Source: Shigella phage TB004
Length of the DNA: 64,000 bases
Sequence record: MW822011
Reading direction: 5' to 3' (one strand)
A program made the translations under genes and the position numbers. Shown piece after piece: positions 9,548-25,150 of the stretch; the first letter of the stretch is position 1, and each line of letters opens with the position of its first letter. A model generated the notes under the pieces. The model saw nothing but the letters and a program-made list of their open reading frames with translations, was not told the origin of the DNA and made no database searches.

Positions 9548-10121
9548 AAGATTTCTCCATTATACGTATAAGGTCGTTCATAAATGAATTGATGTCTGAT
9601 TTTGCTATTATTTTTATTTGACGAAGTTTTTCATTTTCAAGAACAGCAGCTTCATACGTATCGACCGCAGCAAGTGCTCCTTCATATTGAGGATATTTTC
9701 TAGCTTTATCGCCTTTGTCATACCAAACATATGGATTATCATCGTATGATATTAAATTATAGAATTTTTCACCGTTCTCATTCACATGATATACTATTTG
9801 GTCTCCACCTACGTTTTTGTATTTTTGTATAGATGCTTGATAAGCAGCTTCTTGCGAAGTAATCCATCCATAATACGGATCATAATTATCGTTACACATC
9901 AATAAAACCCAATACAACTGCGGATTTCCATATATAGCATTTGCTAATTCTTCCGGTCGTGGTGAACCTTTAATATAATAAGTACGTAAGCGGTATCCCG
10001 CAAGAGCACGTTTGAAATAGTCTTTATAGTTTCTAAAAATATCTGTCATAGGAATAGTCGGCGCGTTTTTATTCACCGTTTTGGCCGCATATTCAATCGG
10101 ATCAAAAAATGTAAAGAGCAT
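9531..10121 (-). CDS. 53: baseplate wedge protein gp53
   Basis: 196-aa ORF upstream of gene 5; size and synteny. Confidence 0.75.
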   Translation of the reverse strand: MLFTFFDPIEYAAKTVNKNAPTIPMTDIFRNYKDYFKRALAGYRLRTYYIKGSPRPEELANAIYGNPQLYWVLLMCNDNYDPYYGWITSQEAAYQASIQKYKNVGGDQIVYHVNENGEKFYNLISYDDNPYVWYDKGDKARKYPQYEGALAAVDTYEAAVLENEKLRQIKIIAKSDINSFMNDLIRIMEKSYGNDK

Positions 10122-10134
10122 GGGCCCTCCTGTT

Positions 10135-10142
10135 TATAAATA
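10135..10142 (+). promoter_or_regulatory. late promoter TATAAATA for gene 4
   Basis: Exact TATAAATA about 27 nt upstream of the gp4 ATG. Confidence 0.55.
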
Positions 10143-10149
10143 TATTATC

Positions 10150-10157
10150 TATTTATA
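10150..10157 (-). promoter_or_regulatory. late promoter TATAAATA for gene 53 (divergent from the gene 4 promoter)
   Basis: Exact TATAAATA on the minus strand upstream of the gp53 ATG. Confidence 0.55.
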
Positions 10158-10168
10158 AGGAGAATCCA

Positions 10169-10621
10169 ATGGCATATTCTGGAAAATGGGTTCCTAAAAA
10201 TATATCAAAATATAGAGGTGACCCTAAAAAAATTATGTATAGATCAAATTGGGAAAAATTCTTTTTTGAATGGTTAGATAAAAATCCAGAAATTATTGCA
10301 TGGGGTAGTGAAACAGCAGTAATTCCTTATTTTTGTAATGCAGAAGGGAAAAAACGTAGATACTTCATGGATATTTGGATGAAAGATTCTTCTGGGCAAG
10401 AATTTTTTATTGAAATAAAACCTAAAAAAGAAACACAACCACCAGTTAAACCGGCACATCTAACAACCGCAGCGAAGAAAAGATTTATGAATGAAATTTA
10501 TACATATTCCGTTAATACTGATAAATGGAAAGCAGCGCAAGCTTTAGCTGAAAAGCGTGGAATAAAATTTAGAATTCTAACAGAAGATGGATTAAGAGCT
10601 CTTGGCTTTAAGGGGGCATAA
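10169..10621 (+). CDS. 4: head completion protein gp4
   Basis: 150-aa ORF; synteny 53/4/2/3/1. Confidence 0.7.
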
Positions 10622-11445
10622 TGGCTATTTTTCAAATAATTAATGAAAGCACTCCCCAAGTTCCAAAGGTTAAGCAATCATTAAACGAAAAGAAATGGAT
10701 TCAGATAGGTCTTGAATACAAAAAGGCCAAAGCAAAAGGAATGACAGGAAAGCAATTTGCTGAAGAAAGAGGAATCAAATATTCTACGTTTACTTCGGCA
10801 ATGTCAAAATATGCTTCAGGAATTAAAACTGCTGAAAAGATTCAAAAGCTTGAATCAAAACCAATGAATAAACTCAATAAGCAAGAAAGACAACTGCTTA
10901 TGATAAATTCATTCAGGCAAACGTTGCGTGATAAAATTCGTAATGAAGGTGCAGCAATTAATAATAAAACCAGAAAGTGGTTTGCTGAAACTATTAAGCA
11001 GGTAAAAGGACATAAAGTTGTTCGCCCGCAGCCGGGACGAATATATGCTTTTGCTTATGATGCTAAACACAAAGAAACTCTTCCTTATTGGGATAAATTT
11101 CCTTTGATAATTTACCTCGGTTTAGGTAAACATAATTTAATGTATGGATTGAACTTGCACTATATTCCACCTAAAGCTCGTCAACAGTTTCTAGAAGAGC
11201 TTTTAAAGCAATATTCAAATACACCTACTATTACTAATAAAACAAAATTAAAAATTGATTGGAGTCAAGTGAAAGGATTTAGGGGTGCAGACCAAATGAT
11301 TAAGGCATATATACCCGGTAATATTATGGGTAGCCTTGTTGAAATCGCCCCGAAAGACTGGGCGAACGTTGTGTTAATGCCACTTCAGCAGTTCGTTTCA
11401 AAAGGAAAACGTTTCTCTGCAAACAAAGTCTGGTCAAATATCTAA
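10621..11445 (+). CDS. 2: DNA end protector protein gp2
   Basis: 274-aa ORF; size and synteny. Confidence 0.7.
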
Positions 11446-15287: not shown

Positions 15288-15360
15288 TGGGAATTAGCCA
15301 AGTTGGTAAGGCACTGGATTTTGATTCCAGGATGCAAAGGTTCGAGTCCTTTATTCCCAG
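15288..15360 (+). tRNA. tRNA-Gln (anticodon TTG)
   Basis: Hand-folded cloverleaf, GGTTCGAGTCC T-arm; no encoded CCA. Confidence 0.8.
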
Positions 15361-15361
15361 C

Positions 15362-15448
15362 GCGAGAATGGTCAAATTGGTAAAGGCACAGCACTTAAAA
15401 TGCTGCGGAATGATTTCCTTGTGGGTTCGAGTCCCACTTCTCGCACCA
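15362..15448 (+). tRNA. tRNA-Leu (anticodon TAA), long variable arm
   Basis: Acceptor GCGAGAA/TTCTCGC, anticodon loop CTTAAAA, CCA encoded. Confidence 0.8.
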
Positions 15449-15453
15449 AATTT

Positions 15454-15527
<74 letters not shown>

Positions 15528-15537
15528 ATTTAATTTA

Positions 15538-15611
15538 CTCCGTGTAGCTCAGTTTGGTAGAGCGTCTGCTTTGGGAGCAGAATGTCGCAGGTTCAAATCC
15601 TGCCGCGGAGA
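15538..15611 (+). tRNA. tRNA-Pro (anticodon TGG)
   Basis: D-stem GCTC/GAGC, anticodon loop TTTGGGA, GGTTCAAATCC T-arm. Confidence 0.8.
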
Positions 15612-15613
15612 CT

Positions 15614-15703
15614 GGAGGCGTGGCAGAGTGGTTTAATGCACCGGTCTTGAAAACCGGCAGTCGCTCCGGCGACTCATAGGTTCAAATCCTATCGCCTCCG
15701 CCA
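15614..15703 (+). tRNA. tRNA-Ser (anticodon TGA), class II
   Basis: Long variable arm, anticodon loop CTTGAAA, CCA encoded. Confidence 0.8.
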
Positions 15704-15708
15704 GTTTT

Positions 15709-15784
15709 GCTGATTTAGCTCAGTAGGTAGAGCAACTCACTTGTAATGAGAAGGTCGGCGGTTCGATTCCGTCAATCAGCACCA
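15709..15784 (+). tRNA. tRNA-Thr (anticodon TGT)
   Basis: Anticodon loop CTTGTAA, GGTTCGATTCC T-arm, CCA encoded. Confidence 0.8.
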
Positions 15785-15785
15785 A

Positions 15786-15860
15786 GGCCCTGTAGCTGGA
15801 AGGTTCAAGCAAGCGACTCATAATCGCCAGATGGTGGTTCAATTCCACCCAGGGCCACCA
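15786..15860 (+). tRNA. tRNA-Ile/Met-type (anticodon CAT; the T4 homologue is the AUA-reading tRNA-Ile)
   Basis: Acceptor GGCCCTG/CAGGGCC, anticodon loop CTCATAA. Confidence 0.7.
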
Positions 15861-15873
15861 AATTAAGAATTAA

Positions 15874-15960
15874 GGGGAGTTATCCCGTAGAGGTAGCGGT
15901 GTGGACTGTAAATCCATTGTCATTGCGACTCGGGTGGTTCGACTCCATCACTCCCCACCA
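15874..15960 (+). tRNA. tRNA-Tyr (anticodon GTA), class II; not in the T4 set
   Basis: Anticodon loop CTGTAAA, long variable arm resembling E. coli tRNA-Tyr, GGTTCGACTCC T-arm; D-arm atypical. Confidence 0.6.
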
Positions 15961-15964
15961 ATTT

Positions 15965-16038
15965 GGATGTGTAGCTCAGTGGTAGAGCAGTTGACTGTTA
16001 ATCAATTGGTCCATGGTTCGAATCCATGCATGTCCGCC
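15965..16038 (+). tRNA. tRNA-Asn (anticodon GTT); not in the T4 set
   Basis: D-stem GCTC/GAGC, anticodon loop CTGTTAA, T-stem CATGG/CCATG. Confidence 0.7.
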
Positions 16039-16164
16039 AAATTTGTGACAACTGTCACATTAATATCTACTTGACGCGATTATAGGGTTGAACTGATCAC
16101 TCTTCTCTTAATTTCGTGTGAAGACATCTTGATTGTTGGAGTAGGTATTAATGTGAACTAATTA

Positions 16165-16241
16165 CGGGGTGTAACTCAATTGTATAGAGTAGCGGTCCTC
16201 TAAACCGCAGGTTAAAGGTTAGAATCCTTTCACCCTGGCCA
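16165..16241 (+). tRNA. tRNA-Arg (anticodon TCT)
   Basis: Anticodon stem GCGGT/ACCGC, loop CCTCTAA, CCA encoded. Confidence 0.7.
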
Positions 16242-21243: not shown

Positions 21244-22210
<967 letters not shown>

Positions 22211-22212
22211 AG

Positions 22213-22246
22213 TTGTTTACTTTCTCCTAAAACTGTGATAGTATAT
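22213..22246 (+). promoter_or_regulatory. T4-type early promoter
   Basis: GTTTAC ... TGTGATAGTAT. Confidence 0.5.
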
Positions 22247-22281
22247 TCACAGTTACTAATTAAAATATTTAAAGGAAACAC

Positions 22282-22849
22282 ATGAAAACCTATAAAGAAT
22301 TTATCGCTGGAAAAGGCCAAAGGCATTAATAAAGATGAGTGGACTTACCGAGGAAACGGCTTTGACCCTAAAACAGCCCCTATTGAACGATACTTAGCTA
22401 CAAAAGCTTCCGACTTTAAAGCTTTCGCTTGGGAAGGACTTCGCTGGCGTACCGATCTAAATATTGAAGTTGATGGGCTTAAATTTGGCCATATTCAAGA
22501 TGTTGTTGCTAGTAACTTGGATGCAGCTTTTGTTAAAGCTGACGGTGACCTTCGTCGCTGGAATTTAAAACTATTCTCTAAACAGAAAGGCCCGGTGTTT
22601 GTGCCTAAAGCTGGTAAATGGGTTATTGATAATAAATTAGCTAAGGCTGTCAACTACGCTGGTCTTGAATTCGCCAAGCATAAATCATCATGGAAAGGTC
22701 TTGATGCAATGGCCTTCCGTAAAGAATTTGCTGATGTTATGGCTAAAGGCGGCTTTAAGGCAGAAATAGATACCTCTAAAGGTACGTTTAAAGACGCTAA
22801 TGTTCAGTACGCTTACGCTGTTGCTAATGCAGCCCGTGGTAATTCTTAA
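22282..22849 (+). pseudogene. ipIII: internal protein III-like gene interrupted by a +1 frameshift after codon 13
   Basis: MKTYKEFIAGKGQRH-stop, then an open shifted frame (KGINKDEWTYRGNGFDPKTAPIERYL...) to 22849; removing one C near 22317 restores a single ORF of about 189 aa. Confidence 0.65.
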
Positions 22850-22957
22850 TAAAGCCGAGTTCGAACCCGGTAATAGATAAATATAGAAACAGACAATTCG
22901 CACGCATGAATTGTCCCAAACTTAAAGAATAAAACTATTTACATTTAAAGGAAACAC

Positions 22958-23260
22958 ATGAAAACATATCAAGAATTTATTACTGAAGCGCGAGTGAGTG
23001 CAGGTAAATTAGAAGCCGCTATAAATAAAAAGGCCCATTCATTTCACGATTTGTCCGATAAAGACCGTAAGAAACTTGTAAGCCTTTATATTGACAAAGA
23101 GCGTATTCTCGCTCTTCCTGGCGCTAATGAAGGTAAACAGGCCAAGCCTTTGAATGCTGTCGAAAAGAAAATTGATAACTTTGCTTCTAAATTCGGTATG
23201 TCTATGGATGACCTTCAGCAAGCGGCTATCGAAGCAGCTAAAGTAATTAAAGGTAAATAA
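22958..23260 (+). CDS. ipII: internal protein II-like (100 aa) with MKTYQEFITEA targeting sequence
   Basis: Targeting-sequence N-terminus; size and position between ipIII and denV. Confidence 0.65.
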   Translation: MKTYQEFITEARVSAGKLEAAINKKAHSFHDLSDKDRKKLVSLYIDKERILALPGANEGKQAKPLNAVEKKIDNFASKFGMSMDDLQQAAIEAAKVIKGK

Positions 23261-23261
23261 C

Positions 23262-23294
23262 AGTTTACTTTCTCCTAGAATTGTGATAGTATAT
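23262..23294 (+). promoter_or_regulatory. T4-type early promoter, near-duplicate of the 22213 copy
   Basis: GTTTACTTTCTCCT...TGTGATAGTATATTCA. Confidence 0.5.
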
Positions 23295-23317
23295 TCATAA
23301 TTACTTGGAGGGGTAAA

Positions 23318-23682
23318 ATGACTCGTATTAATTTGACTTTAGTATCTGAACTTGCTGATCAACATTTAATCGCGGAATACCATGAATTGCCGCGTGTTTT
23401 TGATATAATTCGTAAACACGCGGCAAATGGAAAAATGATTATAATCCATGCAAATCAGCTATTAAGTTGAGTCAACAACGACTCGATGAAAAAATTTTAA
23501 TGAAGCCGCATTGGTATAAGTATTACGGCAAAAATATTTACATTCAAATAACATGGGAACAAGCTGGACCTCATGATTCTGTGAGGGATTCCCGCCAACC
23601 TGTAATAAGGTCGAGCCCAAGTGCGGTAATGGGTAAATACAGAAATGGACAATTCATGCGCCACGGAATGGCCCAAATTTAG
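23318..23682 (+). pseudogene. denV: denV (endonuclease V, pyrimidine-dimer glycosylase) with internal deletion and frame change
   Basis: N-terminal 46 aa [17 protein letters not shown]... then stop at 23470; C-terminal remnant SQQRLDEKI..KPHWYKYYGK in another frame. Confidence 0.65.
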
Positions 23683-23692
23683 AGATAACAAA

Positions 23693-24232
23693 ATGAGAAC
23701 ATTTTTAACTGGTCCTTATCTATCCCTGATGAATGCTTTTACACACCATTCTGATGCTAGAGTAGAAGAAATTTGTAAAAATGATTATATCCCACCATTC
23801 GAAGACTTACTCAAACAGTATTGCACACTTCGACTAGATGGTGGACGTCAATCCGGTAAATCAACTGCAGTAACTAATTTTGCCGCTAATTGGTTGTATG
23901 ACGGTGGAACAGTTATTGTTCTTTCTAATACTTCAGCTTATGCTAAAATTTCTGCGGGCCACATTAAAAAAGAGTTTTCTCGTTATTCTAGCGATGATAT
24001 TCGATTCCGCTTATTTACCGATTCTGTCCGTAGTTTTATCGGTAATAAAGGAAGCAAGTTCAGAGGTTTATCGCTTTCGCGGATTTTGTATATAATCGAT
24101 GAGCCTGTTAAATCTCCTGATATGGATAAAATTTACGATATTCATATTGAAACTGTGCACCACTGTTGCAATAGTAAATGCTGCATTGGTGGTATTACTC
24201 GTCCACAGTTTTTCATAATCGGAATGCAATGA
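23693..24232 (+). CDS. small P-loop NTPase
   Basis: Walker A GGRQSGKST, Walker B ILYIIDEP. Confidence 0.5.
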   Translation: MRTFLTGPYLSLMNAFTHHSDARVEEICKNDYIPPFEDLLKQYCTLRLDGGRQSGKSTAVTNFAANWLYDGGTVIVLSNTSAYAKISAGHIKKEFSRYSSDDIRFRLFTDSVRSFIGNKGSKFRGLSLSRILYIIDEPVKSPDMDKIYDIHIETVHHCCNSKCCIGGITRPQFFIIGMQ

Positions 24233-24558
24233 TGACAGACACGCAACTTTTCGAATATCTTTATTTTTCGCCAAAAACTATTAAAAATAAATTGGTGAAT
24301 CATTTTGAAATTTTGGCAAATAACAACGTCTTGAGCGAATTTTATCCTAAGCAATACAAATTACAAAAAGGTGTATTCAAAGGATGCAGAGTTTTGTGCA
24401 CTGCTCCTAATGCAAGATTAATGAATAAAATTCCATATTTTACCATGGAATTTATTGATGGGCCTTTTAAAGGACTAATTACCCAAAGTTTAATGGCATA
24501 TGATTCTGAGCCATTTTTAATTAAAGAGCAATCTTGGATAAATTTATTTTCTAATTGA
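24229..24558 (+). CDS. hypothetical protein (109 aa)
   Basis: ATG-initiated ORF overlapping the upstream stop. Confidence 0.4.
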
Positions 24559-24566
24559 GAGGTTAT

Positions 24567-24929
24567 ATGAAAGCATATCAAATTCTTGAAGGCACGCATA
24601 AAGGTACTATTTATTTTGAAGACGGTATTCAAGCACGAATTATTGTCTCTAAAACTTTTAAAGAGGACTCTTTTGTAGACCCAGAAATTTTCTATGGTTT
24701 GCATGCCCGTGAAATTGAAATTGAAACACAACCTACAGTTAAAATTGAGGGTGGTCAACACCTGAACGTTAACGTTCTGCGTCGTGAAACTCTGGAAGAT
24801 GCAGTTAAGCATCCGGAAAAATATCCACAGCTGACCATCCGTGTATCCGGTTATGCAGTTCGCTTTAACTCTCTGACTCCGGAACAACAGCGCGATGTTA
24901 TCGCTCGTACCTTTACTGAGAGCCTGTAA
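24567..24929 (+). CDS. autonomous glycyl radical cofactor (GrcA/YfiD-like)
   Basis: C-terminal [55 protein letters not shown], essentially the E. coli GrcA glycyl-radical domain. Confidence 0.85.
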
Positions 24930-25150
24930 TGGCAAAGATAATTATTGAAGGTTCTGAAGATGTGTTAAATGCTTTCGCCGAGTGGTTTAGTAATTCAGGC
25001 GAACAGCAATTTAATGAAGCGTGGAATATGGGTGATATTGATGGAATTTATCCTACGACAGAAATTTCTGTTCAAGGATATGGAATTCATGAGCCTATTC
25101 GTTTAGTTGAATATGATTTAGGTACTGGTGAGGAAGTAAAATATGATTGA
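24929..25150 (+). CDS. hypothetical protein (73 aa)
   Basis: ORF in the denV-regB interval. Confidence 0.4.
   Translation: MAKIIIEGSEDVLNAFAEWFSNSGEQQFNEAWNMGDIDGIYPTTEISVQGYGIHEPIRLVEYDLGTGEEVKYD

Follow-up and report, generated by a model that had tools for sequence, protein, structure and literature searches.

The denV gene encodes T4 endonuclease V, a pyrimidine-dimer DNA glycosylase/AP lyase. The nucleophile of this enzyme is the alpha-amino group of Thr2, after removal of Met, and catalysis involves Glu23 with a basic cluster made up of Arg3, Arg22, and Arg26. Not all T-even phages have the activity: work by Streisinger in 1956 and by Harm in 1963 is said to have found T2 about twice as UV-sensitive as T4, lacking the v function. 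We searched the whole T2 record (AP018813.1) by tblastn with the DenV proteins of T4 and JE01 and found no DenV homologue at E ≤ 1. The place that denV occupies in T4 is taken by ip4 in T2 (L005, AP018813.1 45,000-85,000) and in RB32 (L010), where this gene replaces both ipII and denV between an early promoter and a conserved downstream element and no denV remnant is left. The product names near this slot in the T2 record are largely mis-assigned, with an ip4-sized CDS (474 bp) called ‘valyl tRNA synthetase modifier’ and a vs.7-sized CDS (330 bp) called ‘baseplate tail tube initiator’.

Across phages, the slot contains denV, ip4, denV with extra genes, or nothing. PeSL-mediated modular shuffling has been described in the hyperplastic regions of T4-like genomes (Arbiol et al. 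2010, PMC2839356; Comeau et al. 2014, PMC4122927). The denV slot is a region of this kind, with a repeated early promoter on its upstream side and a conserved element on its downstream side. An intact gene is the norm for denV, since the match covers at least 80% of the protein in 1062 of the 1106 phage records with a tblastn hit.

Some Tequatroviruses have two slots for denV, one between e and ipIII with a T4-type gene and one after ipII with a JE01-type gene. SP1, W143, and Pu-Krd-SF2 each carry an intact T4-type denV in the former (137 aa, 91% identity to T4 DenV), which lies 1.3-1.7 kb upstream of a deleted copy in the latter. The intact e-ipIII copies are found at the following positions:

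SP1 (L044), 10313-10726
W143 (L045), 9902-10315
Pu-Krd-SF2 (L046), 10939-11352

The deleted copies are JE01-type genes that have lost sequence at short direct repeats. SP1 and W143 have a 347-bp deletion at a GACTCG repeat, with a junction that is present in 18 phage records, and Pu-Krd-SF2 has a deletion of ~504 bp at a GGGTAAA repeat, with a junction present in 52. Because the e-ipIII denV is intact in these three phages, their deletions are losses of a redundant copy. We considered describing these cases as recurrent denV loss in T4-like phages and dropped the idea, as all three keep an intact e-ipIII copy within a 24-kb view.

The sequence analysed here is a stretch of 64,000 nucleotides from Shigella phage TB004 (MW822011), referred to below as the window or the 64-kb window. 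It is a segment of a Tequatrovirus (T4-like) genome, and its nearest records in the phage collection are ~95-96% identical to it over 20 kb. Its genes run on the plus strand in the same order as in T4 (tRNA cluster, e, ipIII, ipII, denV remnant, vs.8, vs.7, and vs.6/grcA). The features around the denV slot are as follows:

15288-16241, plus strand, tRNA cluster
Ending at 22210, plus strand, lysozyme gene e
22283-22849, plus strand, ipIII
22958-23260, plus strand, ipII, the upstream neighbour of denV, intact and encoding 100 aa
23263-23305, plus strand, T4-type early promoter before the denV remnant (TTTACT, 17 nt, TAGTAT)
23307-23320, plus strand, Shine-Dalgarno sequence GGAGGGG and ATG start of denV, both intact and in a context identical to that in JE01
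23553-23690, plus strand, conserved non-coding element that is not part of denV, near-identical in T4, JE01, SP1, W143, and RB32
23693-24232, plus strand, intact vs.8 homologue of 179 aa with its ATG at 23693

The genes on either side are undamaged. The exact IpII protein is found in 224 contigs, where it carries that name, and the exact product of the vs.8 homologue is found in six contigs, with a vs.8 annotation in T4 and its relatives. The damage is confined to denV, as the vs.8 homologue is intact. The promoter at 23263-23305 fits the PST/T4 early-promoter consensus, TTTACW-N17-TAYWAT (PMC4122927), at 11 of 12 positions, and an early promoter before the slot is kept in T4, JE01, SP1, W143, and RB32. 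This promoter is a direct repeat (91% identity) of the ipIII promoter at 22215-22257. There is also a second direct repeat in the region, 91% identical between 22267-22309 and 22943-22985, which consists of the ribosome-binding site and first codons (MKTY.EFI) of ipIII and ipII and thus encodes an N-terminal leader common to these two internal proteins. Both repeat pairs are 43 nt long.

The initial annotation had described the denV gene of TB004 as carrying an internal deletion, with both ends of the gene present in different frames. Our tblastn searches, translations, and alignments bear this out. With T4 and JE01 DenV as queries, residues 1-41 match at 23318-23440 (E = 5e-19 with JE01 DenV) and residues 99-138 match at 23425-23544 (E = 2.5e-23); neither match is due to chance. 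We placed the limits of the deletion using a multiple alignment with T4, JE01, SP1, and W143 and by scanning all possible breakpoints against JE01 and ZCEC14; together these gave a single clear solution. Compared with the intact genes of JE01 and ZCEC14, exactly 187 bp are missing, corresponding to nt 114-300 of the 417-bp gene. Given this deletion, the retained sequence differs from ZCEC14 at 7 of 300 nt and from JE01 at 11 of 230 nt. The intact gene contains the 5-nt direct repeat AATGG twice, at nt 109-113 and nt 296-300, while a single copy remains in the window. The parts of the remnant are as follows:

23318-23430, plus strand, 5′ fragment of denV (nt 1-113, codons 1-38) in its native frame
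23426-23430, plus strand, deletion junction with the one AATGG copy left, anywhere within which the breakpoint can be placed
23431-23547, plus strand, 3′ fragment of denV (nt 301-417, codons 101-138) in the -1 frame relative to the start
23318-23470, plus strand, truncated ORF of 50 aa (MTRINL...ANGK followed by 11 out-of-frame residues), ending at a TGA at 23468-23470

These limits change several details of the first description. The loss amounts to 62 1/3 codons (residues 39-99 and parts of codons 38 and 100) rather than the roughly 70 that had been estimated, and the 46 N-terminal residues that had been counted shrink to 38-39 native ones, as the last 11 residues of the 50-aa ORF are out-of-frame read-through. 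The fragments are not separated by about 30 nt, as had been thought; they are contiguous, and homology to DenV in the -1 frame begins already at 23428, abutting the junction. The apparent gap arose because a TTG at 23467 had been taken as the start of the C-terminal piece. From 23428 the -1 frame runs on to a TAG at 23680-23682. The former denV stop codon, TAA, is now CAA (23545-23547), a change common to the TB004 window, SP1, and W143, and because of it a 71-aa ORF within the stretch first described reads into a non-coding stretch. Its tail (23548-23682) is therefore conserved non-coding sequence read through a lost stop, not denV.

The ancestral state would have been a JE01/ZCEC14-type denV in the same place as in T4, between ipII and vs.8, from which the 187 bp (nt 114-300) between the two AATGG copies would have been lost. 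Judging from the short direct repeat left at the junction, the likely mechanism is slippage during replication or illegitimate recombination at microhomology. In this the TB004 lesion, an intragenic deletion at microhomology, is unlike a PeSL cassette swap, which takes place at the boundaries of a slot. As the 187 missing bp do not make up a whole number of codons, the reading frame is shifted, and the denV ATG, behind its intact promoter and ribosome-binding site, yields a 50-aa peptide, the sole product expected from this start codon.

The locus can be compared directly with T4 denV (endonuclease V; PF03013, 2END, 1VAS). Position (ipII, denV, vs.8), early promoter, and start are the same in both phages, and residues 1-38 are 80-85% identical. 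Residues 101-138 are 56% identical to T4 and 95% identical to JE01, and the identity to JE01 is likewise 95% over its residues 99-138. TB004 differs from T4 in lacking the 187 bp, in the shifted frame, in a product of 50 rather than 138 aa, in the substitutions R22H and G29D, and in the lost stop codon. Aligned to both the T4-type and the JE01-type gene, the locus shows an internal deletion that breaks the frame, and no other reading is intact.

The truncated product keeps part of the active site. M1, T2, R3, I4, N5, and L6 do not vary among 120 homologues and are all present in the remnant (MTRINL), which therefore retains Thr2 and R3; it also retains E23 and R26. Position 22 is a His, so the combination of Glu23 with the full basic cluster is absent. 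The larger damage is to the fold. An intact homologue aligns over its full length (residues 1-137) with the solved structures of T4 endonuclease V, 2END and 1VAS, and the intact fold modelled with AlphaFold from a homologue (pLDDT 90.8) has helices at 14-36, 56-59, 64-80, and 108-124. The deletion of residues 39-99 takes out two of these four helices (56-59 and 64-80), and the frameshift leaves helix 108-124 and the C-terminal aromatic segment (W128-Y-K-Y-Y) out of frame with the N-terminus, although the HWYKYYGK segment is still encoded within 23431-23547 in the -1 frame. A 50-aa peptide without residues 39-99 cannot supply the complete fold of ~138 aa with its helices 14-36, 64-80, and 108-124. 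Among 120 diverse homologues there are thirty-five invariant columns, of which twelve are in the deleted stretch and five in the out-of-frame part. The Pfam profile PF03013 (Pyr_excise) still matches residues 1-33 (24.4 bits against a cut-off of 23), at profile positions 1-36 of 81; this partial match shows the descent of the remnant, not its integrity.

Taken on its sequence, with syntenic homology to T4 and JE01 (ipII, denV, vs.8) and a disabling 187-bp frameshift, the denV locus of TB004 is a pseudogene. The suspicion that the gene is nonfunctional, already voiced in the initial annotation, is supported by the loss of residues 39-99, by the C-terminal third being out of frame, and by R22H, and the truncated product would have lost endonuclease V activity. 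The TB004 gene is a new allele of a known pseudogene type, and the case is one of ordinary decay of a dispensable accessory gene.

The 5′ fragment also carries three private substitutions, R22H, G29D, and V35A. Of the 120 homologues, 105 have R and fifteen have Q at position 22, and none has H; at position 29, 114 have G, five have S, and one has N, and none has D. Compared with ZCEC14, the closest intact allele, the seventy-six retained codons contain four non-synonymous changes (including the stop loss) and two synonymous ones. Together with the change of the stop codon from TAA to CAA, the three substitutions fit relaxed constraint or drift after inactivation, and they may have arisen later than the deletion or alongside it. 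This argument is no more than suggestive, because the counts are small and the remnant has diverged from ZCEC14 about as much as its flanks have (~2.6% and ~2.1%, respectively).

A denV remnant alone does not predict UV sensitivity, because the gene has two alternative slots. TB004 could have a pseudogene after ipII and not be UV-sensitive if a second, intact denV lay elsewhere in its ~170-kb genome, outside the 64-kb window. SP1, W143, and Pu-Krd-SF2 pair a deleted post-ipII copy with an intact e-ipIII gene in just this way, and TB004 resembles one of them closely, with flanks that are 98.5% identical to SP1, its best match, and the TAA to CAA change shared with SP1 and W143. The TB004 window, however, lacks the e-ipIII copy that these phages keep. 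In the window the ipIII promoter repeat begins at 22215, directly after the end of the lysozyme gene e at 22210, which leaves no e-ipIII denV slot, and tblastn with T4 and JE01 DenV found no DenV-like sequence at E < 0.1 besides the two fragments in the 64 kb, which extend 23 kb upstream and 40 kb downstream of the remnant. (A weak match at 22137-22214, with E between 0.5 and 2.4, is inside the lysozyme gene and is noise.) Moreover, denV was located within the e-to-vs.8 neighbourhood in every T4-like genome we inspected. We therefore regard an intact copy outside the window as unlikely, and, judging from these 64 kb, TB004 is most likely DenV-null. Such a phage would repair UV dimers by recombination pathways only and would probably be UV-sensitive, roughly like T2 or a T4 v-minus mutant.

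The exact 50-aa product is found in only one NCBI contig, from a single assembly, and the 187-bp junction is absent from the best 60 of 292 matching phage records, all 60 of which carry the extra 187 bp. The junction was not found in GTDB genomes, nor in IMG/VR, where the search had low power (just one contig there has the intact JE01-type junction). Two metagenome matches to the junction were rejected as chance matches of 22-24 nt in unrelated DNA. Absent from the other collections searched, the allele is private to one genome, as would also be the case if the deletion had arisen as an artefact of assembly or sequencing, or if it marked a minority variant or one from laboratory passage, the natural phage having an intact denV. 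We think this very improbable. A clean loss of 187 bp between 5-nt repeats in non-repetitive sequence is not typical of assembly errors, the neighbouring genes are perfect, and an artefact would leave unexplained the extra private substitutions at conserved positions and the lost stop codon. A real deletion could be of natural or of laboratory origin, with the same appearance in these data, and they speak neither for nor against the domestication of the strain that the initial annotation suggested. Still less credible, to the point that we give it almost no weight, is an alternative reading that restores function, either by a -1 ribosomal slip (at GGA-AAA-A) or by separate fragments that complement each other. 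The 3′ fragment is indeed in the -1 frame, and there is a run of five A at the junction (23430-23434), but T-GGA-AAA is not a canonical X-XXY-YYZ slippery heptamer. A slip would not help in any case, because the protein core would still be missing: the fusion would be without residues 39-99, two helices, and twelve invariant positions, and with the stop lost it would bear a 45-aa tail. As for a separate C-terminal fragment, the sole start in the 3′ frame is the TTG at 23467, which has no ribosome-binding site, and the -1 frame has no Pfam match, nor does the protein collection contain an exact copy of its product. All in all, a denV pseudogene formed by a 187-bp deletion at microhomology, in a phage that most likely has no endonuclease V, is very probably the right explanation.

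While the denV results will not surprise specialists, the conserved RNA-like element downstream of the remnant (23553-23690) is a more interesting by-product of the analysis. It is conserved in T4, JE01, SP1, W143, and RB32 whatever gene is upstream of it in the slot; in T4 it corresponds to NC_000866.4 ~64,799-64,938 (minus strand). A 40-nt core of the element (23595-23634) is present at 90% identity or more in ~1050 phage records, and its carriers belong to unrelated groups of enterobacterial phages: Tevenvirinae (other genera among them), rV5-like Vequintavirinae, and the N4-like Pylasvirus, with a jumbo Klebsiella phage as a further carrier. Most copies of the core lack an annotation, and outside the T4-like phages they are found in gaps, often beside tRNA clusters. 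In Klebsiella phage Pylas (L015, 972-1979), there is a 1-kb unannotated gap downstream of the tRNA cluster with the core at 1201-1238; this gap also contains a tRNA-like acceptor/T-arm sequence (~1275-1345) and weak tmRNA-like Rfam matches at 1617-1752 that are below the gathering score.

We rejected a known RNA, a host sequence, and a peptide as identities for the element. Rfam (4227 covariance models) gave no match at E ≤ 1 in window positions 22000-25000 and none at the core motif in six other phage loci, there is no match in the E. coli genome, and no ORF in 23553-23690 is conserved on either strand. The single-sequence fold of the element is no better than that of shuffles (z = +0.5), and the evidence for structure comes from thirty-seven distinct copies of the element. 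A helix of 4-6 bp, whose 3′ strand ends 4-6 nt before the core, varies in sequence by lineage (GGGAA/UUCCC, GGGAG/CUCCC, AAAGC/GCUUU, AAAGG/CCUUU, GGAAC/GUUCC, UGAGUG/CACUCA, and UGAAUG/CAUUCA); the null expectation for a helix of at least 5 bp is 18% per sequence. The core is enclosed by an outer helix in which compensatory changes are seen, with CG in fourteen and GC in five copies at one pair, and CG in eleven, GC in five, and UA in two at another. The covariation score of the outer helix, which is not phylogeny-aware, is 0.213, compared with 0.075 for shuffles (0 of 500 reach 0.213) and at most 0.091 for slid controls. A covariance model (R1) finds one copy in the window, at 23591-23640 with 69.9 bits. 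Read from the opposite strand, the G-U pairs would no longer pair, and this speaks for an RNA made in the same direction as the genes. We regard the element as a candidate for a new structured RNA; with odds a little below even, it may be one copy of an RNA family not described before. On that reading, the slot would be a swappable cassette before a fixed functional RNA.

Two further observations concern the surroundings of the element. A diverged paralogue (~65% identity) follows ipIII at 22840-22930, starting at the double stop codon of that gene (TAATAA), and is not recovered by the covariance model. Within the paralogue there is a perfect hairpin of 8 bp, GACAATTC...GAATTGTC (22889-22916), and one of its arms is the exact reverse complement of 23647-23660. 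In addition, the T4 annotation of vs.8 includes an extension of 40 aa at the N-terminus (MRDSRQPVIRSS...YREE), which is inside the conserved element (L001:1137-1262; NC_000866.4 ~64,787-64,912). The same frame is closed in the window by the TAG at 23680-23682 and is closed in JE01-type phages as well, and the common start of vs.8 is the ATG of MRTFLTGPY (23693). Going by this comparison of frames, the extension in T4 may be an over-long gene call.

For TB004 itself, the predicted consequence of the deletion is the loss of dark repair of UV dimers, which would be relevant for any use of the phage in therapy or biocontrol under sunlight or UV, and the 187-bp size difference offers a simple PCR marker for the allele. 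More generally, the cassette slot to which denV belongs can occupy two or more alternative positions in these genomes, and a remnant at one of them does not by itself mean that the function is lost. Like T2, TB004 would be a T-even phage without a functional endonuclease V gene. The slot in T2 and RB32 contains ip4 and no remnant, whereas the TB004 gene is still recognizable, so the loss occurred by a different route. TB004 would thus add one more way in which T-even phages lose the v function, with no gene at all in T2 and a decayed gene in TB004.
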